Counted from the stretch's first letter, positions 4,627 to 42,147 are shown. The stretch: 64,000 bases of DNA from Escherichia phage vB_EcoM_MM02 (MK373784.1); one strand, 5' to 3'. A program made the numbers and translations. The notes: generated by a model not told the origin, from the sequence alone.

Positions 4627-6315
4627 TTATGAAACAGTCATTACAGTAAATCGTCCAACTTTGCTCATTTGAAGATGTTGTCCATAAGCTTGTGGGTCAT
4701 GGTCTCTGTGACTAATTATAAACACGTTTGCATCGGTTAGAGAGTTAAGAATTGTTGAAATGGCTTTAATACCTTCGGAATCAGTCGCGGAATCCATGAC
4801 TTCGTCCATAATTAATGTATTGATTCTAACACCAGAGACCTTTTCAGCAATATCTCGCCACGTAAACAACAATGCGATATCGATACGCGCTTTTTCGCCT
4901 TGACTAAATGAAGCATAACTGAACTCTTCACGGCCACGTGATTTTATAGATTCATTGAATTCTTCATCAATAGAAAACACGTAATCGGCTTCCATGATTT
5001 TAAGATAATGGTTAATCTGCTTGTTGAACAGAGGCACATATTTTTTAATGATAGCACCTTTAATACCAGAATCTTTTAACATATCTGTGATAATACCACG
5101 ATGGTATTTTTCAAGAACGATATCTGATTTTGTTTTAATGATTTTATCAAGTTCTTTTTGAAGCAAAGCTATCTCATCGGCATGGTCGATAAATTCTGCT
5201 GAGGCTTGCTCTATTGCAGCTTTAACTTTCTTAGCTTTATCAATAGTGGCAATCATTGCTTGTTTCTTGGTACGAATATCAGATGCAAGGTCCTGTTTAG
5301 TCTTAACATTAGCTCTATATTCGTCCACTAGGACACTCAGGTTATCTCTGTGACATGTAAGTTGCTCGAATGAGTGATTACATTCGTGAAGCTTATCGGT
5401 AATCTTAGAGACAATAGGGTCACCCTGGTGCAACTGTGATGCGCAAGTAGGACATGTACCGCCATCGTGATACATCTTAATAACTTTGTTGTATGAGTCG
5501 ATTTTAGATTTAATCAAGAATGCTTCTTGTCCTATCTTGTTGAATGCCTCAGTAGGGTCTTCATCAAGAACGATATTAAGTAGTCGCTCATTAGCTTCTT
5601 CGATTTCTGCTTTTAATGAACGAGCTTCTTTGGCTAGGTCGTCATACATATTCTGTAGACGCGCTACATTATCACCAGATAATTTCTTTTGACGTTCGAT
5701 ATTCTCGTTATAAATCTTAATTTGTTGGATAACACCATCTTTCTTAGCATCGAGAACTTGTCCCTGGGAATTAAGTTCTCGAACTTGAGACTTATTGATT
5801 TTATCCATTTCAGCGAGTGTGCCGACTTCTAAAAGGTCTTCGACAAGTTTTCTACGAGCAGGGGTGCTAAGAGCCATGAAAGGGGTATACCCTGCCGTCC
5901 CAAGCACAACGATCTGTTTAAAAGACGCGTATGACATTCCGATGCTACGTTCAAATTCTTCTTGGAAGTCACGACTGCTGGCAGATTCATCGAGACGAAC
6001 ACCGTCAACGGAGATTTCGAAAATATTGGGCTTTTGGCCGCGTCTAATGAAGTATTTTTTATCATCGAATTCCATCCAAAGCTCAACTAAGAGCTCTTTC
6101 TTGTTCGTGCTATTAATGATTTGTCCTTTCTTAACATCACGAAATGGTTTACCGAAAAGTCCGAAAGTAATGGCTTCTAACATCGTAGATTTACCACCGC
6201 CATTTTTACCAGTGATTAATGTCTTTTGGACTTTATCTAATTGGATATCAATAGGATTCCCACCTACCGACATGATGTTTTGATAACGAACACGATTTAA
6301 TTTAAATGATTTCAT
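4627..6315 (-). CDS. 46: Recombination endonuclease subunit gp46 (Rad50/SbcC-like ATPase)
   Basis: 562 aa; N-terminal Walker A GKNGGGKST, long coiled-coil middle, C-terminal ABC signature region. Confidence 0.9.
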   Translation of the reverse strand: MKSFKLNRVRYQNIMSVGGNPIDIQLDKVQKTLITGKNGGGKSTMLEAITFGLFGKPFRDVKKGQIINSTNKKELLVELWMEFDDKKYFIRRGQKPNIFEISVDGVRLDESASSRDFQEEFERSIGMSYASFKQIVVLGTAGYTPFMALSTPARRKLVEDLLEVGTLAEMDKINKSQVRELNSQGQVLDAKKDGVIQQIKIYNENIERQKKLSGDNVARLQNMYDDLAKEARSLKAEIEEANERLLNIVLDEDPTEAFNKIGQEAFLIKSKIDSYNKVIKMYHDGGTCPTCASQLHQGDPIVSKITDKLHECNHSFEQLTCHRDNLSVLVDEYRANVKTKQDLASDIRTKKQAMIATIDKAKKVKAAIEQASAEFIDHADEIALLQKELDKIIKTKSDIVLEKYHRGIITDMLKDSGIKGAIIKKYVPLFNKQINHYLKIMEADYVFSIDEEFNESIKSRGREEFSYASFSQGEKARIDIALLFTWRDIAEKVSGVRINTLIMDEVMDSATDSEGIKAISTILNSLTDANVFIISHRDHDPQAYGQHLQMSKVGRFTVMTVS

Positions 6316-6566
6316 ATGTATTCTCTTCGAATGAAGTCCTCTACATATTTTAACATGTCATCTCTATCAGCAAAATATTCATCTAGTTCCGCATACATAA
6401 CAACACCTGGTGCATACTCGCAAGTAACATACATTGTTCCAAAGAAACGAGGAGTTGATTCCTCGTAATTCTCAGTCCATTCAACGATGCCAATATAACC
6501 GTCACCAATACTAGATTCATGACGATGGATTTCATAATCAGTCTTCGCCATTATACGCATCCTCAA
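6312..6566 (-). CDS. Hypothetical protein (T4 46.1 position)
   Basis: 84-aa ORF overlapping the gene 46 start by 4 nt. Confidence 0.45.
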   Translation of the reverse strand: MRMRIMAKTDYEIHRHESSIGDGYIGIVEWTENYEESTPRFFGTMYVTCEYAPGVVMYAELDEYFADRDDMLKYVEDFIRREYI

Positions 6567-6795
6567 TACACGCTTCAGCCATTTTAAGAATAGAGCCGGG
6601 AGTATCGTTGTCCATTATATTAAAGCTAAATTCAATAGCCCAGTCGGTGCAGACATGAACTGCTTTAACTTCATTGCCTTCAACGCGTAATGGCTCAATC
6701 CAATACTTGATAGTGTTCTTGAATCCATCATCGTCTTTAACGTCCATTTCAACTTCAAGTCCAAGCCCAGCATTATTAAATTCATCTAAAGTCAT
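6538..6795 (-). CDS. Hypothetical protein (T4 46.2 position)
   Basis: 85-aa ORF between 47 and 46. Confidence 0.45.
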   Translation of the reverse strand: MTLDEFNNAGLGLEVEMDVKDDDGFKNTIKYWIEPLRVEGNEVKAVHVCTDWAIEFSFNIMDNDTPGSILKMAEACIEDAYNGED

Positions 6796-7811
6796 TGTGT
6801 TGCCTCAATATAAAGTTCGTTGGAATATTTGACCAGCGCTTCTCTGTCTTCGTCTGAGATATCTGGAATCGCGTCAATATATTCTTTAATGATATCTTGA
6901 AGTGATTTAATCTCGATTTCCTGGTCGTCATCAGATTCAACACTGTTATCAACTTTAGAAACCATGCGAAGAGAGTGAACTACTTTTTCAAGTTCAGATT
7001 CAAACTTAGTCAACTCTGAATCAATTTCTGATACTATAACACGTACGGCTAGATTAGTATAATCAGAATAATTGATTTTGCCTTTAAACGGATAAGTGAT
7101 TCGTCGATGCCATGTTGTTTCATTAGGAATAAATTCCATACGTTCAACGTCAGTGTCAAATACCCAGAATCCGCGAGGGTCGTTCTCATCACCTGCAGTA
7201 AGGGTCCATGGTGTCCCAATATATTTGACGTTAGCAGCTTCAGAGATTGTGTGGAAGTGGCCAGACCAGACTTGTTTATAGGTCTTTAAGAAATCAGGTT
7301 CAAGCCCATGAGACTTCATTCCTTTATAGAAATAAAAGCCATTCAGTTCCCAGTGCCCAACACAATACGCTGCGGAAGAAGTCTTGATGTGCTCTAAGAT
7401 TTCACCTGTATTTTCTTCACACATCCATGGAACGATATCAATCAGACATCCGTCAAAATCTACAGTAGTTGGATGCTCGTAAATAGTAAAGTTTTCAAAT
7501 TGAGTCAACAATTCAGAAACAGTGTTAGGTGTTATTGTATTCTTAAACGCCATGTCATGGTTTCCTATCGTGACATGAACGTGAATGCCTGCTTTAGAAA
7601 TCATATCAACAATTTCACGATTGAATTCCATTGTACGATGTGTTATTGCTTTACGGACGTCAAACCAATCGCCGTACTGAATCCAAGTTTTAATCCCGTG
7701 TTTCTTAGAGTATTCAATTGCTTGACGAATACCATCACGTTGAATATCTTGAACCCATGGGTCGTCTTGTTTGACTCCGATATGGAAGTCGCCTAAGTGC
7801 AAAATTTTCAT
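6792..7811 (-). CDS. 47: Recombination endonuclease subunit gp47 (Mre11/SbcD-like)
   Basis: 339 aa; calcineurin-like phosphoesterase motifs (LGDFH, GNHD); same length as T4 gp47. Confidence 0.9.
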   Translation of the reverse strand: MKILHLGDFHIGVKQDDPWVQDIQRDGIRQAIEYSKKHGIKTWIQYGDWFDVRKAITHRTMEFNREIVDMISKAGIHVHVTIGNHDMAFKNTITPNTVSELLTQFENFTIYEHPTTVDFDGCLIDIVPWMCEENTGEILEHIKTSSAAYCVGHWELNGFYFYKGMKSHGLEPDFLKTYKQVWSGHFHTISEAANVKYIGTPWTLTAGDENDPRGFWVFDTDVERMEFIPNETTWHRRITYPFKGKINYSDYTNLAVRVIVSEIDSELTKFESELEKVVHSLRMVSKVDNSVESDDDQEIEIKSLQDIIKEYIDAIPDISDEDREALVKYSNELYIEATQ

Positions 7812-9922: not shown

Positions 9923-10251
9923 TTTACCGCCTTAACAATTTTAAGGTCAACGAATTTTTTCTTACGTTGATTTTTCATACGACGGATAGTCTTTTCAGAG
10001 ATTTCATGTTTCTGATAAGCTTTAGATTCAACACCAAATGCAGCAACGTCAAATTCAGAAAGAATATATTGTACTAGAATTTCACGAATAGAATTACGTC
10101 CAATTTTCTGGTCGTGTTTTTGCATGATTTCATAAAGACGGAATTCCCACGCATCAAGAACTTGAGGAGTAACAACATTGCCAGATTCCAGAAGAGCAAC
10201 AACTTTATCGAAAGCGAAAGAATTAACTACGTTTTTGATTTTAGTAGACAT
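9919..10251 (-). CDS. Hypothetical protein
   Basis: Likely start MSTKIKN at 10251 with GAGGA SD; the upstream extension lies inside the promoter cassette. Confidence 0.4.
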   Translation of the reverse strand: MSTKIKNVVNSFAFDKVVALLESGNVVTPQVLDAWEFRLYEIMQKHDQKIGRNSIREILVQYILSEFDVAAFGVESKAYQKHEISEKTIRRMKNQRKKKFVDLKIVKAVK

Positions 10252-10269
10252 ATTATTTTCCTCGGTTAT

Positions 10270-10318
10270 TTTATTATCCAACGAGAGAATTATACTCATC
10301 TCTCAAGAGTTTGTATAC
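10270..10318 (-). promoter_or_regulatory. Promoter/stem-loop cassette (gagaga/tctctc arms flanking TATAAT)
   Basis: Near-identical to 41098..41147 apart from compensatory stem changes. Confidence 0.5.
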
Positions 10319-10557
10319 TATTTTTTAAGCATGAAAAGTAAGTAATTTGTATCACGTGGAGTAATATCAACACCCATATCAAAGATGCCTTTATAGATTG
10401 GGTATTTGTTTTCTGTTGTATCGAAGCTGAAACTATTTCCATCACAACTAACAGTAATAGCATCTGTTAAAATGTCATACTCAATCCTAACAATTGAATC
10501 ACCAATTTTAACGTCGAGGTGTTTTTTGAATTTGATAAAATCTAATTCTTGGGCCAT
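10318..10557 (-). CDS. Hypothetical protein
   Basis: 79-aa ORF. Confidence 0.4.
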   Translation of the reverse strand: MAQELDFIKFKKHLDVKIGDSIVRIEYDILTDAITVSCDGNSFSFDTTENKYPIYKGIFDMGVDITPRDTNYLLFMLKK

Positions 10558-10620
10558 GATATTTTCCTCATTTTAAGACGATAGGAAGATAATAACATGT
10601 CTTCCTATCGTTGTACATTA

Positions 10621-10821
10621 TTAACCGAACTTTTTAGCGCCTTTCCAGCCTTCGTACATAACTGCACAAGTCAGTAGTACAGCGTGCTGGCATTCTTTGT
10701 ATTTGTAAATCCAGAACCAGCGTAAGAAGTCTTCATCCTCAACGCCGTTGAGTTTCATATTGGCAAAGAATTCGGCACGTTCTTCACGAAGCTTTTGCGA
10801 TAACATAGATTCAGGATTCAT
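10621..10821 (-). CDS. Hypothetical protein
   Basis: 66-aa ORF. Confidence 0.35.
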   Translation of the reverse strand: MNPESMLSQKLREERAEFFANMKLNGVEDEDFLRWFWIYKYKECQHAVLLTCAVMYEGWKGAKKFG

Positions 10822-11045
10822 TTTGTGTTCCAGGCCCCATTTTCATCGATGAACTTAATCCAGTCATTTACAGACCATTTAGTTGTATCACCCTTTGGAT
10901 TAACATTTAAAGTATATAATCCCTGCTTAAAAAGCATTCGTTTGATATTCATAATTTCCTCAACTGTAACGATAACATTCGTTAGCTTTACGTTTGGCTT
11001 CAGTATGAGAAGTATTATAATCATACTCTTCTTTACTGTAAACAT
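10818..11045 (-). CDS. Hypothetical small protein (start uncertain)
   Basis: 75-aa ORF overlapping 10960..11280; real start probably an internal Met. Confidence 0.25.
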   Translation of the reverse strand: MFTVKKSMIIILLILKPNVKLTNVIVTVEEIMNIKRMLFKQGLYTLNVNPKGDTTKWSVNDWIKFIDENGAWNTK

Positions 11046-17876: not shown

Positions 17877-18282
17877 TATTTTTCCTTTCATCGATTAAAT
17901 ATGCAACGCCAAATACAATACATGTAATAAAACCTGTGATACAGATAGAAACCAACAACACCGTACCAAAGAACCAAATCAAGTTATCTTTAGTAGTTTG
18001 TTTGATATCCATCTCACGAATTTCTATAGCTATAGTATCACCTTTATTCAGAAGCGTATAAAACGACGGTGATACATGCCTGTCAAAAACTCGTCCTTGC
18101 TCATCTTTATAGACGGCAATAAATTCTAATTTAGAATATTTTCCTGTAGATTGACCTGAAATTAATTCCACTACCTCCACAGGAATTACTTTAGTTTCCA
18201 TGTAAGTATTTTGGCTGTTCCAAATGAATGGAATAATAGCAAAAACTAAAGCTGCGATAAAACAACGAAGGCTATATCTCAT
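17869..18282 (-). CDS. Hypothetical membrane protein
   Basis: 137 aa; N- and C-terminal hydrophobic helices. Confidence 0.45.
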   Translation of the reverse strand: MRYSLRCFIAALVFAIIPFIWNSQNTYMETKVIPVEVVELISGQSTGKYSKLEFIAVYKDEQGRVFDRHVSPSFYTLLNKGDTIAIEIREMDIKQTTKDNLIWFFGTVLLVSICITGFITCIVFGVAYLIDERKNNV

Positions 18283-18587
18283 TATAATGTTCTCTCAAAT
18301 TTGTGGAAGCATTTACGGCATTTCAATTTCAAGTTATCACTGGTCCAGTTAACCAGTTGGACTTGGATAGTTCCACATTCCGGGCATGGATGTTTTGCTG
18401 CCGATTTGGCAGCATTTTCACGTCGTTCAACCATTTTCATTATTTCGTTCCATGCTGGAGGAACGAACTCTTCTTCACCATGAATTTTATCTCGCTGGAC
18501 AAATTCAATCTTTGAACTATCATCAATAAACTTAACTAAGCCATGATTAGTGCTCATATCAATATCCTCTAGAAGACGTAGGTTCAT
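18282..18587 (-). CDS. Hypothetical zinc-ribbon protein
   Basis: 101 aa; CPECG ... CRKC cysteine pairs. Confidence 0.45.
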   Translation of the reverse strand: MNLRLLEDIDMSTNHGLVKFIDDSSKIEFVQRDKIHGEEEFVPPAWNEIMKMVERRENAAKSAAKHPCPECGTIQVQLVNWTSDNLKLKCRKCFHKFERTL

Positions 18588-19537
18588 TATAACACCTCAA
18601 TGGCATTTCGTAAACCATCCGCTTTCGCGTTCAGAGCTTTTAACGATTTAGTTTGTTCTGCAATCTGGGCTTCGACTTCTTTCAGACGAGATTTGAGATA
18701 TTCGCGTTCTTCTCTTAAGTTATCAACTTTTTCTGCTTTAGGCTCTTTAATAGGCTTAGGCTTATACTCGTTAGGGTTCTTCAACTTAATTTGAATGCGA
18801 GAACTGTATAACATTGAACCATTATCTTCGGTTTCATCATACATTTCTACCACGTCCATGATTCTTAACATCATGCGAAGTTTATAAGACAGCGAACGAA
18901 TGGTTTTATTGTGCTTCTTAATTTCTTCAGCTTTCATGGTGCCGAGATTACGTGAGTAATAATAAGGAACCTGAATATCAATTGATAATGATGCGGTACC
19001 ATTACCGGTTGGTTTGAACACTGCAGTAACCCAATCTTTAGCATGAACTGTATTTGTACGATCATCGCCGCCTGTGAATAATTTACGAGAATGTTTAAAA
19101 AGCATATTCACTTGGTTATTGAATTCACAAGCAAATTTATCAGCAAATTTAGTTTCAGGAATGGTAGTTAACCAATCAGCCAAATGAGTCTTTTTAACAT
19201 CATTAACAATAGTGAATTCAACCAAATCGGTTTTAGATGTCACAGATTTAATAAAGCTCGGCTTCATAAAGTTTTTAATGTTATCGCGAGCTACAGTAGA
19301 AGATAATAAACGAGAACGTTTGAACCATTGAAGCAGTGTCCCTAATGAATGAGAATATGCATTTTGAGTATCTTTACAGATATGATTTTCTTGGCCTATG
19401 TATGTACCAAAATCGCGAAGAATACCACTTACTACATCTCGGTGTGGAACATCAAATCCTAGTACACCAGAAGCACGTTGGGCATGAACGTTAGCGATAA
19501 GACCTGCAAAGTATTCAATGTAATGTGAACGTGTCAT
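18587..19537 (-). CDS. Hypothetical 316-aa protein with C-terminal coiled coil
   Basis: First of three consecutive ~320-aa ORFs each preceded by a promoter cassette. Confidence 0.5.
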   Translation of the reverse strand: MTRSHYIEYFAGLIANVHAQRASGVLGFDVPHRDVVSGILRDFGTYIGQENHICKDTQNAYSHSLGTLLQWFKRSRLLSSTVARDNIKNFMKPSFIKSVTSKTDLVEFTIVNDVKKTHLADWLTTIPETKFADKFACEFNNQVNMLFKHSRKLFTGGDDRTNTVHAKDWVTAVFKPTGNGTASLSIDIQVPYYYSRNLGTMKAEEIKKHNKTIRSLSYKLRMMLRIMDVVEMYDETEDNGSMLYSSRIQIKLKNPNEYKPKPIKEPKAEKVDNLREEREYLKSRLKEVEAQIAEQTKSLKALNAKADGLRNAIEVL

Positions 19538-19565
19538 AATATTTTCCTCTCGTTAAGATAAATTC

Positions 19566-19595
19566 ATTATACTCCAACCATCCTTGGTTGTAAAC
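19566..19595 (-). promoter_or_regulatory. Early-type promoter cassette (GTTTAC, 18-nt spacer with caacca/tggttg IR, TATAAT)
   Basis: 27 of its 30 nt recur at 20586..20612. Confidence 0.5.
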
Positions 19596-19599
19596 TGAT

Positions 19600-20559
19600 T
19601 TATGATTTTAACGCATTCATTGCGTTAAAAAGTTTAGAGTACTGCAACTGGAGCTTGGTAACTACTTGTTGAGCATCACGAAGCTTAGCTTGTGCTTTGT
19701 CAAGTTCAACAGACAGTTGGTCCATAGTGGCCTTGATTTGATTATAATGGTAATCTTCGACCGGAAGAAGGTCATTAGAAACATTTAGTTTTACTGCAGA
19801 CAGTTTGCACACATTTGGCAAACCTTTAAACATTGATTTACCCGAAGTAGAATAAGCACTTAGGACTTCGGCCTGTTCAATTGGGGTTGCAGTAATTGAC
19901 GCTTCGAACGTTGCATTTTCCTTTTTAAGATTTTGATAGTATTCAGAGTCTTTGTGCCACCATGGCGCAGGAACCTTTTTACCAATAGATACACGAGCCT
20001 GGATAGCGATATGGCCCTTATTCTTGATAGTGTTGATAATATTAAGCTCACGAGAATAAATTGCTTTAATCTGGTGGATATTATCACCTAAAACTTCCAA
20101 CGCTTGGTGGAATACACGAGCAACGTTATCATTCTTAGGTTTATACGTAAGAGTGAACTCGTTCTCACTGATAACCATGATTTCTAACTTATCGTAAGTA
20201 TATTTCAAATGTTTCATGTTAATTGCTTGAGGACGAATACGAGAAGCAATGGCCATCAGATTGTTAAGGTTATTCCGGAACTGCTTAGCGAAATATTGTC
20301 CTTCACCGCCAATACAAAAATTACGAAGTTTCTGTTTGGCCAATAAACGGCTGAACTCGCCATTTTTAATGAACTCTTTAACGGGTGTGTTAGTAACGCA
20401 TTCAAATTGAGTAAACTTACGAGAAGTAATACCATAATATGAACAGACTTCCTCAATCTCTTCAGGAGTCTTTACAGGCATACGGATAGGATTAGGTCCT
20501 GGAGTATATGCGTTCGAGGTAAATTCTTTGATAAGTTCTCTACGTGTAATAAAAGCCAT
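19600..20559 (-). CDS. Hypothetical 319-aa protein with C-terminal coiled coil
   Basis: Second of the triplet. Confidence 0.5.
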   Translation of the reverse strand: MAFITRRELIKEFTSNAYTPGPNPIRMPVKTPEEIEEVCSYYGITSRKFTQFECVTNTPVKEFIKNGEFSRLLAKQKLRNFCIGGEGQYFAKQFRNNLNNLMAIASRIRPQAINMKHLKYTYDKLEIMVISENEFTLTYKPKNDNVARVFHQALEVLGDNIHQIKAIYSRELNIINTIKNKGHIAIQARVSIGKKVPAPWWHKDSEYYQNLKKENATFEASITATPIEQAEVLSAYSTSGKSMFKGLPNVCKLSAVKLNVSNDLLPVEDYHYNQIKATMDQLSVELDKAQAKLRDAQQVVTKLQLQYSKLFNAMNALKS

Positions 20560-20585
20560 TTTATATTCCTCATGTTGAAAAATTT

Positions 20586-20612
20586 ATTATACTCCAACCA
20601 TCCTTGGTTGTA
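20586..20612 (-). promoter_or_regulatory. Promoter cassette, duplicate of 19566..19592
   Basis: Identical 27-mer attatactccaaccatccttggttgta. Confidence 0.5.
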
Positions 20613-20614
20613 CA

Positions 20615-21610
20615 TCATTCCTTAAGAAGTTTTACTACTTGAATAAGATTAGCTCGTTCTGTTTTATTTTTACCGTTTAAGCCTGCTAATCGTGAGATTT
20701 CATCGTCAGTCTGTTGAATAGTTACATTAAGTTCGTTAATCAAAGCTTCAAAGTATTTGATTTGCTCGGCATGTTTTGATTCAAATTTCTGAACAGGAAT
20801 AACGTCTTGGTTCAGTTCATCAATAAGGTCTTTAAGAGCATCTTCTTGGTTGATATCATATTCAACTTCTTTTATTTCTTCAACGAGCTCGTCTTTATAT
20901 CTAACGTCTTTTAGTCCTGGTGCTGGTCCTGAAATCTCTTCTTTAAGAGTACAAACATATCCAATACGGTATCCAATGCCGTCTCGCTTGATATCAACTT
21001 CGTCGATAAATCCACAATGTTTAAGTCCAGAGCCGATTATGTCAAAATATCCTTGACGTCGTCCTTCAAACGTTACACGAACTACTAAGACAGTTTTGCC
21101 ACCGACCTTTTGAAGCTCACATTTATAAAAGTTTGTTGAACCTGAATAACATGGATGAGTTTTAAAGTTCATCTGACGATCTAGGCCCATTTGTAAACGT
21201 GCTGTTACGGCCATAAAACGTGTTTGGTTCTCGTTAAGATGAGCAACAATCCATTTCAAAGGCATTTTACCCTGTTCACGGCCGAACAAATCAGTACGTC
21301 CTAGATTACGCAGGATGTTGTTAGAGTTAATCATCGACAGAACGTTAAGTTTATTCAGCGCGCTGAAGATTCCATCAGCCATTGATTTTCCATAACCTTT
21401 ACACGCTTTAATAAGTGCTCGCGGCAGATTAGTATAGATTTCAGACGGCATATGAAAATCAAATTTACTAGTCAGTAATTGATGAACTTGGATAGCAATT
21501 TGCTCATAATTAAGTGCTCTGCGATCGTTATGGTCTTTAAACCATACTTTAATCTGTGAAGCACATAAACCGTTAATTTCATGTTTTACCGCATCAGATG
21601 TAATGCTCAT
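20615..21610 (-). CDS. Hypothetical 331-aa protein with C-terminal coiled coil
   Basis: Third of the triplet. Confidence 0.5.
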   Translation of the reverse strand: MSITSDAVKHEINGLCASQIKVWFKDHNDRRALNYEQIAIQVHQLLTSKFDFHMPSEIYTNLPRALIKACKGYGKSMADGIFSALNKLNVLSMINSNNILRNLGRTDLFGREQGKMPLKWIVAHLNENQTRFMAVTARLQMGLDRQMNFKTHPCYSGSTNFYKCELQKVGGKTVLVVRVTFEGRRQGYFDIIGSGLKHCGFIDEVDIKRDGIGYRIGYVCTLKEEISGPAPGLKDVRYKDELVEEIKEVEYDINQEDALKDLIDELNQDVIPVQKFESKHAEQIKYFEALINELNVTIQQTDDEISRLAGLNGKNKTERANLIQVVKLLKE

Positions 21611-21672
21611 AACTATTTCCTCAGATTGAATTGGAACTCAAAACCATTATAACCCGTCCTTGGGTAAAGCGT

Positions 21673-22683: not shown

Positions 22684-23685
22684 TTATTTCAGTAAAGTAA
22701 CTTCCGAGATTTCCTCCCAACCATCTTTATCAGTTGAAATAAAATCTGCTACATAAAGAGCCGTACGTAATGATACATTGCGAAGACGAGATACGTTAGC
22801 CTTCATCCAGGACAATGCTTTATACGTTTCTGCATCAGTCAGACCACGTTTCTGCATCATGTCAGTAGATAATATTACATCTTCAACTCGAACCATAATC
22901 TCTTCATTAGAGTGTACTCCAAGGTCGAGATACACTGAACGAGATACTAAAGCTTGAAGGTGTGGAGCAAGTTTCGAACCCCGTTCTAACTCTTTATCGA
23001 TATCAACGTTTGTAATGAAAACGATAGTACCTTCAAACTCAAATTCTTTATCAATACCCTTATCCTCGAGATAAGATGACGCAGTGCTCCAACAAACTTT
23101 GCGTTTATCTCCGGTGTCTAATGCTGCTTTAAGAAGATTCAAGATGTCCATATCTGAGAATACGTCAACGTCGTCGATTAAGAGAACGCTGTCTGCATCA
23201 CGGTTGAGCCAAAGTTGTTCGTAAAGGCCAATACCAGAGATTTTACCATTAATGCTTTTGTATTTGATGAAACCGTTATCATTAGCATTATTAAGTGCTT
23301 TATCCAGAGAATACGTCTTACCAATACCGGCTGCACCTGAAATAATGAGTGAACGAATTTTGCCATCGATAATGCCATTCGTCATCATGTTCATTACTTT
23401 AAAGCGTTTGTTGATACGAGTTTTCATATCTTCAGTGCTTTCAACAACTGCAACTGGTGATGTCTCAACTCCTTCCATTACGATGTCTGATTTGAAGACC
23501 CATACTCCACGTTCAGAACCATCAATCATAACGAAAATTTTACCATCACCTAAGTGGGAACATTCAGGATTAAGCTTTGCCGGGAACCAGGTCTTTGTGG
23601 CAACATAAGAACCAGAGATTTCGTTATTACGATAGATACCTTTTTTGATTTGAATGTTGAACATTTTATTCTCCAATTTACTCAT
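22684..23685 (-). CDS. Predicted P-loop NTPase (AAA-like)
   Basis: 333 aa; Walker A GAAGIGKT and Walker B VLLIDDVD after a ~110-aa N-terminal domain. Confidence 0.6.
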   Translation of the reverse strand: MSKLENKMFNIQIKKGIYRNNEISGSYVATKTWFPAKLNPECSHLGDGKIFVMIDGSERGVWVFKSDIVMEGVETSPVAVVESTEDMKTRINKRFKVMNMMTNGIIDGKIRSLIISGAAGIGKTYSLDKALNNANDNGFIKYKSINGKISGIGLYEQLWLNRDADSVLLIDDVDVFSDMDILNLLKAALDTGDKRKVCWSTASSYLEDKGIDKEFEFEGTIVFITNVDIDKELERGSKLAPHLQALVSRSVYLDLGVHSNEEIMVRVEDVILSTDMMQKRGLTDAETYKALSWMKANVSRLRNVSLRTALYVADFISTDKDGWEEISEVTLLK

Positions 23686-41584: not shown

Positions 41585-41643
41585 TTTGTTTACTCCTCTG
41601 TAGTTGATAAGTCTATAGTACCACCATCCTTGGCGTTTGTACA

Positions 41644-42147
41644 TCATTTATTTTTAATTTTGCAAATTTTTTCTGCTTCAGCAATTGCAGCGTCAATGAT
41701 GCTTTGTGCAATTTTATTACTAGTTGACCTGGCAATCACACTAAGAACAATTTCTTTTTCTTCACCACCCCAACCCCAAGTCCTTTGTTCGTGGGTACCT
41801 TTAACTACAGCTGAAACTTCAACAGAACGTCCACCATCAGAAGTTTTAACATCTACAACCCAATCACCATCTTTCTCTTCTACCCTTGATTTATCCCAAG
41901 AAATACTAATATATGATTCGCCGTCAATAGAAGTCGCCGGGTTTTTCTCTACCGTAAGACCTTCACTTTCCAGCCATTCAATAGTATTTGCGCATAAATC
42001 AGAAGAACACCTCATCGGAAACCGGCAAGATTTTTCACCTTTAGATGCTGCATCGTACATCTTTTCCAAAATACGCTTTTGCACGTTTTTAAAAATAGTT
42101 TCAGCAGATTCTTCAGATTTTTTATTCAGTTCAGTGTAAAGACTCAT
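41644..42147 (-). CDS. Hypothetical protein
   Basis: 167-aa ORF. Confidence 0.45.
   Translation of the reverse strand: MSLYTELNKKSEESAETIFKNVQKRILEKMYDAASKGEKSCRFPMRCSSDLCANTIEWLESEGLTVEKNPATSIDGESYISISWDKSRVEEKDGDWVVDVKTSDGGRSVEVSAVVKGTHEQRTWGWGGEEKEIVLSVIARSTSNKIAQSIIDAAIAEAEKICKIKNK

Follow-up and report, generated by a model that had tools for sequence, protein, structure and literature searches.

The nrdC.3, nrdC.5, and nrdC.6 genes of an RB69-like Mosigvirus as candidate host-range or counter-defense factors behind promoter and stem-loop cassettes

Introduction

Three consecutive open reading frames (ORFs) on the minus strand of Escherichia phage vB_EcoM_MM02 (MK373784.1) raise the questions of whether they are copies of one gene and what their products do. 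The window analyzed in this study is a 64,000-nucleotide stretch of this genome, in which the ORFs occupy positions 18587-19537 (316 amino acids), 19600-20559 (319 amino acids), and 20615-21610 (331 amino acids); they are abbreviated W316, W319, and W331 and represent the window NrdC.3, NrdC.5, and NrdC.6, respectively. A sequence-only reading had described them as a tandem triplet of coiled-coil proteins lacking a recognizable catalytic motif, each behind its own near-identical promoter, and had suggested a duplicated early-gene module in the variable nrdC-rI island. Our analysis led us to consider it reasonably probable that the Mosigvirus nrdC.3, nrdC.5, and nrdC.6 genes are early or middle host-range or counter-defense factors carried in shuffleable cassettes of the promoter-early stem-loop (PeSL) type.

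Three elements were known beforehand from the literature: the gene names, the PeSL cassettes as a class, and the ability of the NrdC.5 family to counteract Dsr1. PeSLs and their promoter-middle counterparts (PmSLs) were described by Arbiol et al. (2010, PMC2839356) and Comeau et al. (2014, PMC4122927). A T4 deletion clone formed no plaques on ECOR17, nor on MG1655 provided with the ECOR17 dsr1 gene (PMC9391042), and the expression of T4 nrdC.5 in trans restored plating on dsr1 cells (Srikant, Guegler & Laub, eLife 2022, PMC9391042). Dsr1 itself is still described as poorly characterized. The additions made here are modest: a probable paralogy linking NrdC.3, NrdC.4, and NrdC.5, a common domain-linker-helix design with a conserved helix, a covarying hairpin embedded in the promoter spacer, and a cassette-precise insertion or deletion (indel) of nrdC.5.

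Identity and family membership of the three genes

The three ORFs were confirmed as consecutive genes, each preceded by a GAGGAA-type ribosome-binding site. They lie in the 18.5-21.7 kb region; the 4.1-kb stretch compared exhibited 97-99% identity to many Mosigvirus genomes (JK42, mar005P1, NBG1, APCEc01, and others), with a value of 98.8% for the region, and by sequence the source of the window is an RB69-like Mosigvirus. The RB69 reference annotates the counterparts of W316, W319, and W331 as nrdC.3, nrdC.5, and nrdC.6. The T4 genome carries nrdC.3,.4,.5,.6,.7, and.8 consecutively; compared with T4, the window phage lacks nrdC.4, and its nrdC.7 is relocated beside nrdC. Searches with tblastn revealed matches in 653 (W316), 145 (W319), and 741 (W331) phage records, all of them from T-even relatives infecting enterobacteria. 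By this comparison, the three ORFs are real conserved genes, and the earlier placement of early-type genes in the variable nrdC-to-rI region is supported.

W316 was 95% identical to RB69 nrdC.3 and 56% identical to T4 NrdC.3, and it matched phrog_1435 over residues 1-316 (E 1.3e-105), that is, as a full-length orthologue; PF26897 was found as a precomputed annotation on all 33 of its 33 homologues. W319 matched the Pfam family DUF7235 (PF23882) from residue 15 to 318, covering model positions 1-307 (E 2e-121; 405.6 bits against a cutoff of 30), and is a member of this family together with T4 NrdC.5 (E 5e-126; 420.6 bits) and with JS98 orf86 and VR7 NrdC.5 (E in the range of about 1e-121 to 1e-126). 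Both W319 and T4 NrdC.5 also matched phrog_2351. The identity of W319 was 95% to RB69 nrdC.5 and 24% to T4 NrdC.5 (336 columns), with invariant residues scattered over the whole length of the latter alignment. W331, for which PF26899 is likewise a precomputed annotation, was 98% identical to RB69 nrdC.6 and 30-33% identical to T4-type and JS98-type NrdC.6 over 77-92% of the protein in tblastn; its full-length match to phrog_2257 (E 4e-127), a group that also contains T4 NrdC.6, identifies it as the orthologue. In the PHROG classification, NrdC.3 and NrdC.4 share phrog_1435; NrdC.5 types fall into phrog_2351 and NrdC.6 types into phrog_2257.

Divergence within these families was pronounced. Identities among the NrdC.3 alleles clustered at three levels (above 90%, about 75%, and about 55%), and NrdC.5 identity between Mosigvirus and T4 fell to about 24%. 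When 1.84 billion representative proteins were searched exhaustively by HMMER with the W319 alignment, no relatives beyond its own subfamily were found; at that sensitivity, the NrdC.5 family is without detectable relatives outside T-even phages. A scan of IMG/VR with the NrdC.6 alignment yielded 15 loci, and the recovered sequences belonged to the same four protein families at similar identities. The proposed lack of a catalytic motif held: searches of Pfam, NCBIfam, PADLOC, and PDB sequences returned no catalytic or informative domain, only DUF families and sub-threshold coiled-coil noise. In many GenBank records, automated annotation names the homologues of nrdC.2 to nrdC.10 "thioredoxin" or "Mur ligase domain-containing protein." These labels, which find no support in the sequences, appear to be names propagated from the nrdC symbol.

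Promoter and stem-loop cassettes upstream of the genes

An identical 27-mer, TACAACCAAGGATGGTTGGAGTATAAT, occurs on the minus strand at 19566-19592 and 20586-20612, upstream of the 316- and 319-amino-acid ORFs, and 0 matches would be expected by chance; the sequence-only reading had noted a 27-mer shared by two of the promoters. The 27-mer is the core of a 36-nucleotide direct repeat that flanks nrdC.5, with copies that are 94% identical and 1,020 bp apart (one copy at 19557-19592). The nrdC.3 copy lies in an early promoter at 19566-19594 on the minus strand (TTTACA-17-TATAAT), which matches the sigma-70 consensus at 11 of 12 positions and whose spacer contains a stem-loop at 19575-19590 (CAACCA-AGGA-TGGTTG; predicted fold -6.9 kcal/mol). 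The nrdC.5 early promoter, at 20586-20614 on the same strand, reads TGTACA-17-TATAAT and carries the same embedded stem-loop at 20595-20610. Both copies scanned as good sigma-70/T4-early promoters, and phage NBG1 carries a promoter annotation at the site homologous to that of nrdC.3. The two promoters exhibit the PeSL arrangement, namely an intergenic sigma-70-like promoter with a Shine-Dalgarno sequence and start codon downstream, and they are of the T4/PST PeSL promoter type (consensus TTTACW-N17-TAYWAT, PMC4122927), which the nrdC.3 promoter fits.

The third promoter is of another kind. Upstream of nrdC.6, at 21646-21670 on the minus strand, a MotA-box-like GCTTTA is followed by 13 nucleotides and TATAAT, and a stem-loop (ACCC-AAGGAC-GGGT) lies at 21652-21665. 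This region shares only CCAAGGACGG and TATAAT with the other two, and its upstream element is different and its spacing shorter. The claim that each gene lies behind a near-identical promoter was therefore borne out for nrdC.3 and nrdC.5 but not for nrdC.6, where only TATAAT and the CCAAGGAYGG hairpin core, common to all three window promoters, are retained. The consensus of MotA-dependent middle promoters is (a/t)(a/t)TGCTTtA, centered near -30, with a TAnnnT -10 box 11-13 bp further downstream. The nrdC.6 promoter comprises AAACGCTTTA, 13 nucleotides, and TATAAT, with one mismatch (C for T) in the TGCTT core, a Mot box that is cited in PMC4122927. The related arrangement GCTTTA-12-TATAAT, with the stem TATACCA/TGGTATA, was found upstream of T4 nrdC.7 and of nrdC.6 in JS98, VR7, and Bp7. 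The nrdC.6 promoter does not have the PeSL early-promoter form and is PmSL-like; it resembles MotA-dependent middle promoters, is a putative member of that class, and corresponds to the PmSL variant.

The stem-loop recurs throughout the cluster. A C-A-AGGA-Y-G core with complementary arms was present in all cluster intergenic regions of T4, slur11, JS98, Bp7, VR7, RB69, ESCO47, and the window, and the arm pairs (CAACCA/TGGTTG, CATCC/GGATG, CCACA/TGTGG, AGCCA/TGGCT, TATACCA/TGGTATA, and ACCC/GGGT) differed in sequence yet remained complementary. The structure, with a stem of 5-7 bp and an AGGA loop, is a stem-loop as PeSLs require. Across 11 distinct cassette copies, 81.8% of the cells were paired compared with 62% in shuffled controls and 21-51% in slid controls; the covariation score was 0.478 compared with 0.135 for shuffles, and none of 500 shuffles reached either the pairing or the covariation value. 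The stabilities of individual hairpins were unremarkable (z -1.3 to -1.7), and the case for the hairpin is therefore one of covariation. The possibility that the AAGGAUG loop serves as a Shine-Dalgarno sequence and start codon was rejected, as several copies read AAGGACG.

Taken as a whole, the repeated element combines a T4 early promoter with a covarying stem-loop and is of the PeSL type, a published class. Like PeSLs and PmSLs (PMC2839356, PMC4122927), it joins an intergenic TTTACW-N17-TAYWAT promoter, a stem-loop, and a Shine-Dalgarno sequence, recurs among the accessory genes of a hyperplastic region, and coincides with an indel between close relatives.

A fourth early promoter with a hairpin in its spacer (TGTACA-17-TACTAT with CGCCA-AGGA-TGGTG) was observed elsewhere in the window, at 41606-41646 on the minus strand. 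It precedes an unrelated small ORF, which probably starts at an internal methionine (MTTLIIWF...) after GAGGAG.

Absence and exchange of genes at the cassettes

In the Mosigvirus ESCO47 (OM386662), nrdC.6 is directly followed by nrdC.3, with no nrdC.5 between them and a single hybrid cassette at 5935-6039. The left flank of this cassette corresponds to the window nrdC.5 cassette and the right flank to the nrdC.3 cassette, and the breakpoints lie inside the repeat. The absence of nrdC.5 in this relative is thus precise to the cassette, and together with the 36-nucleotide repeats flanking the gene in the window, it provides the coincidence with indels between close relatives that characterizes PeSLs. 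The ESCO47 hairpin combines a left arm of the window type (CAACC) with a right arm of the JS98 type (GGATG) in a mismatched stem, which suggests a crossover within the hairpin loop. Excision mediated by PeSLs has been demonstrated experimentally in RB49/phi1, where promoter and terminator activities and mini-circles were assayed by using reporters and inverse polymerase chain reaction (PMC2839356).

Partial copies of the genes were also observed in other genomes. Matches to the end of nrdC.3 in ACG-C40 (NC_019399, 47515-47652; unannotated), of nrdC.6 in Pinarejo (PP925831, 50021-50155; unannotated), and of nrdC.4 in Salmonella phage Manna (PP987310, 50891-51139; under a coding sequence annotated "thioredoxin") span only the last 45-83 codons, at 60-96% identity. 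In these genomes, the helix-coding gene end that adjoins the cassette seems to survive deletions.

Relationship among the three protein families

We compared the three proteins by BLASTP and found no pairwise similarity, and W316, W319, and W331 belong to three different Pfam and PHROG families. Family alignments were then built from eight, later 23, loci plus database homologues, and their profiles were compared by HHalign; a natural NrdC.5-NrdC.3 chimera (P0056) was excluded from the final profiles. NrdC.3 matched NrdC.4 with 98% probability (E 2e-13), and NrdC.4 matched NrdC.5 with 89.6% probability (E 1.9e-6) over 237 colinear columns. When the NrdC.3 and NrdC.4 N-domains were merged and compared with the NrdC.5 N-domain, the probability was 71% (E 3.7e-5) and the score was 39.7, compared with 11.7 +/- 1.9 under a column-shuffle null (z about 14). 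By these profiles, NrdC.3 is clearly homologous to T4 NrdC.4. Because NrdC.4 is linked to both NrdC.3 and NrdC.5, W316 and W319 are probably very old paralogues.

The results for NrdC.6 were different. In HHalign, NrdC.6 remained below 5% against every other family (E 0.008-0.19), and its N-domain scores (16-21) were at the column-shuffle null (14 +/- 2-3). A full-length link between NrdC.6 and merged NrdC.3/4/5 profiles (57-74%) was dropped, as it disappeared once the coiled coil and linker were removed; the earlier profile signal therefore came from these two segments. As judged from the profiles, NrdC.6 has only its layout in common with NrdC.3 and NrdC.5, and a relation between the N-domains is not detectable. 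The proposed duplicated module is accordingly retained in part: W316 and W319 are probable old paralogues and the architecture is common to all three proteins, whereas W331 does not rise above the shuffle null.

Structure prediction, the check put forward in the sequence-only reading, contributed little to this comparison. The AlphaFold2 (AF2) models of W316 (29 homologues) and W319 (18 homologues) reached mean predicted local distance difference test (pLDDT) values of 50.2 and 42.3, respectively, too poor for a fold comparison. The order of helices and strands was alike in the two models, an agreement to which we give little weight because the models are unreliable. A Foldseek search of BFVD with the poor W316 model returned only an NrdC.3 orthologue; all other hits had template modeling scores of about 0.1-0.3 and were disregarded.

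The excluded chimera, a protein of 299 amino acids on a metagenomic contig of ~167 kb, joins in frame the middle of a T4-type NrdC.5 to the C-terminal two thirds of NrdC.3 (junction ...AWKFNKVN|MLFKH...). Such a fusion implies that a deletion took in nrdC.4, at a point where the sequences are locally similar (FNKVN vs FNDQVN).

Domain layout and conservation of the C-terminal helix

All three proteins exhibited the same three-part layout: a family-specific N-domain of about 220-255 residues, a short linker, and a C-terminal helix of 45-60 residues with heptad periodicity. Coiled coils were called with a home-made heptad score, a heuristic rather than a calibrated predictor, relative to the 95th percentile of shuffle maxima. 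This threshold was exceeded by C-terminal segments of W316 (residues about 270-316), W319 (267-319), and W331 (281-309). AF2 predicted a single long helix at residues 275-315 of W316 (pLDDT 75-85) and 268-318 of W319 (pLDDT 56-70). For W331, the coiled-coil call came from the heptad heuristic and weak coiled-coil Pfam hits only, and a conserved glycine (RLAGLNG) breaks the helix. The heptad periodicity of a coiled coil, taken as hydrophobic a/d positions recurring over at least 4 heptads within a helix, is thus present in the three C-termini by the heuristic score, with AF2 helices for two, in agreement with the coiled coil originally predicted for each protein. In the window, the helical segment is encoded on the minus strand at 18590-18724 for NrdC.3 (residues about 272-316), 19603-19761 for NrdC.5 (about 267-319), and 20618-20797 for the conserved C-terminal helical module of NrdC.6 (about 272-331, heptad score positive at 281-309).

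The helix was the best-conserved part of each family. Identity in the C-terminal helix exceeded that in the N-domain in every orthologue pair: 71% compared with 55% for NrdC.3 against T4, 42% compared with 25% for NrdC.5 against T4, and 57-58% compared with 21-30% for NrdC.6 across genera. The linker between the N-domain and the helix is rich in indels in all three families; in NrdC.6 of Mosigvirus, the linker is extended by an acidic insertion of about 36 residues, which the T4, JS98, and VR7 types lack.

Two reference sequences are frameshifted upstream of the helix. When compared with phage slur11, nrdC.6 of the T4 reference (NC_000866, about 9990-10900) shifts frame near codon 258. Its final 37 codons, the part coding for the helix, remain intact at 97% identity in another frame, and the annotated 275-amino-acid protein lacks the helix. 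This frameshift may mark a pseudogene of the laboratory strain or go back to an error in early sequencing. In the RB69 reference (NC_004928, about 5990-7030), the reading frame of nrdC.5 shifts twice relative to the intact 319-codon gene of the window, first after residue ~239 and again after residue ~260, and the annotated 300-amino-acid product also lacks the helix.

Neighboring genes

The gene nrdC.2 (18282-18587, minus strand; 101 amino acids) encodes CxxC...CxxC zinc-ribbon-like motifs, and its ATG overlaps the nrdC.3 stop codon (TAATG, 18587-18590), which suggests translational coupling between nrdC.3 and nrdC.2. The nrdC.10 orthologue (22684-23685, minus strand; 333 amino acids) contains a P-loop (GAAGIGKT) and an HTH_37-like C-terminus and yielded sub-threshold hits to the AAA_22, AAA_16, and STAND NTPase families; it may be an uncharacterized ATPase in the same accessory cluster.

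Discussion

Several features together lead us to favor the host-range or counter-defense reading for all three genes: they have early promoters, are dispensable, diverge quickly, vary in their presence or absence, and keep company with counter-defense genes. Two neighboring T-even genes are counter-defense genes, gp49.2 acting against OLD (PMC13096335) and nrdC.1 against Septu (preprint 10.1101/2025.11.20.689424). W319 belongs to the same Pfam and PHROG families as T4 NrdC.5 and resembles it in cluster position, early-promoter context, and domain-linker-helix layout; it differs in that it is about 24% identical and lacks two N-domain insertions and 7 helix residues. T4 and RB69 NrdC.3, NrdC.4, and NrdC.6 are conserved hypothetical proteins of T-even phages, to which W316 and W331 are orthologous as members of the NrdC.3 and NrdC.6 families; no function has been published for NrdC.3 or NrdC.6. 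An analogy may be drawn with other single-protein phage inhibitors of NAD-depleting defenses such as DSAD1, which acts early, has no catalytic motif, and neutralizes the SIR2-domain defense DSR2 (PMC10973363, PMC10981675). DSAD1 has no sequence relationship with the window proteins, and the likeness is one of analogy only.

Under this reading, nrdC.3, nrdC.5, and nrdC.6 would be non-essential genes of the hyperplastic nrdC-mobD region, transcribed early or middle from their own promoters. The fast-evolving N-domain would bind and neutralize a host protein, and the C-terminal helix would oligomerize the protein or dock on a conserved partner. For the NrdC.5 family, the target may be Dsr1, a SIR2-type NADase defense that T4 NrdC.5 has been shown by genetics to counteract. 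The cassettes would provide separate early transcription for each gene, and as repeated homology patches, they could allow single genes to be lost, gained, or swapped between phages. The gene identities and families, the architecture, the repeated cassettes, the hairpin covariation, and the cassette-precise absence of nrdC.5 in a relative stand as results of the analysis; the anti-defense role of the window alleles, the oligomerization, and any direct binding are what we infer.

Several observations weigh against this reading. Direct functional evidence is confined to the NrdC.5 family, and at about 24% identity between W319 and the tested T4 NrdC.5, the anti-Dsr1 activity may not carry over. 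The coiled-coil call derives from the home-made heptad score and isolated AF2 helices, and models with a pLDDT of 50 and 42 are below the confidence usable for assigning a fold, an oligomeric state, or a likeness to known inhibitors. In the window, the spacer between -35 and -10 encloses the stem-loop (NNCCA-AGGA-TGGNN), whereas published PeSLs place it upstream of the promoter; the stem-loop is unlike the RB49/phi1, PST/T4, and nt-1/KVP40 stem types in sequence, and it has no U-tract, which makes a terminator role doubtful. The ESCO47 arrangement could instead represent an insertion in the window lineage and demonstrates exchange rather than its direction or mechanism.

Part of this evidence also bears on how far the three proteins belong together. 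They could be unrelated accessory proteins other than counter-defense factors, such as early host-takeover or nucleoid- or membrane-associated proteins, that acquired their C-terminal coiled coils independently and to which the T4 NrdC.5/Dsr1 result does not extend. The low W319 identity, the absence of direct functional evidence for the window alleles, and the frequency of coiled coils across many functional classes agree with this possibility, as do the frameshifts before the helix in the T4 nrdC.6 and RB69 nrdC.5 references, which fit dispensability on laboratory hosts and leave the function unspecified. We nevertheless regard it as unlikely, given that W319 matches DUF7235 over its full length alongside T4 NrdC.5, that the neighborhood is enriched in proven counter-defense genes, and that genes in an arms race typically show such strong divergence of alleles between genera and such variation in presence and absence. 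At the opposite extreme, all three proteins, including NrdC.6, could descend from one ancestral gene by true tandem triplication and retain a single fold, their similarity having been erased by fast evolution. The equal length class and layout, the similar C-terminal endings (L-x-N/Q-A-Phi-x-x-L-K), the common cassette context, and the full-length profile match of 57-74% point in this direction, and the NrdC.3-NrdC.4-NrdC.5 chain illustrates how far divergence within the cluster can proceed. Once the helix and linker are removed, however, NrdC.6 is indistinguishable from the column-shuffle null against every other family, and Pfam and PHROGs keep the families separate; we consider such a triplication similarly improbable. 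A broader version of the preferred reading, in which NrdC.3, NrdC.4, NrdC.5, and perhaps NrdC.6 form one diversifying "helix-anchored" counter-defense family, with N-domains directed against different immune proteins (Dsr1 in the case of NrdC.5), a conserved coiled coil for oligomerization or for docking on a shared partner, and the cassette as a dedicated shuffling unit by which T-even phages would exchange the inhibitors gene by gene, is a tentative proposal to which we assign slightly more weight than to either extreme.

The identity of the 27-mer admits a separate explanation, in which selection for a strong early promoter, a regulatory protein site, or an RNA structure maintains the sequence and recombination or shuffling plays no part. 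Four genera and two promoter types keep the CCAAGGAYGG core while the stems change in compensatory fashion, which does indicate selection on the element itself, and the fourth copy of the element, at about 41.6 kb, precedes an unrelated small gene. ESCO47, with its hybrid cassette, breakpoints inside the repeat, and missing nrdC.5, speaks for recombination at these sites, as does the experimental excision in RB49/phi1 (PMC2839356). Because a promoter or structural role and a recombination role are not mutually exclusive, selection acting alone appears to be the least probable of these alternatives.

If the host-range or counter-defense reading is correct, the cluster would represent a compact set of early counter-defense or host-range genes, of which nrdC.3 and nrdC.6 are still without a known target. 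These findings do not overturn current understanding, and the locus is fairly ordinary yet a reasonable place in which to seek further counter-defense genes. The useful points are that NrdC.3, NrdC.4, and NrdC.5, which include a proven Dsr1 counteractor, are probable diverged paralogues, that the C-terminal helix is conserved, and that the promoter cassettes are prone to recombination. Such knowledge would be useful for mapping the anti-defense repertoires of phages and for adapting therapeutic T-even phages to a desired host range by engineering.

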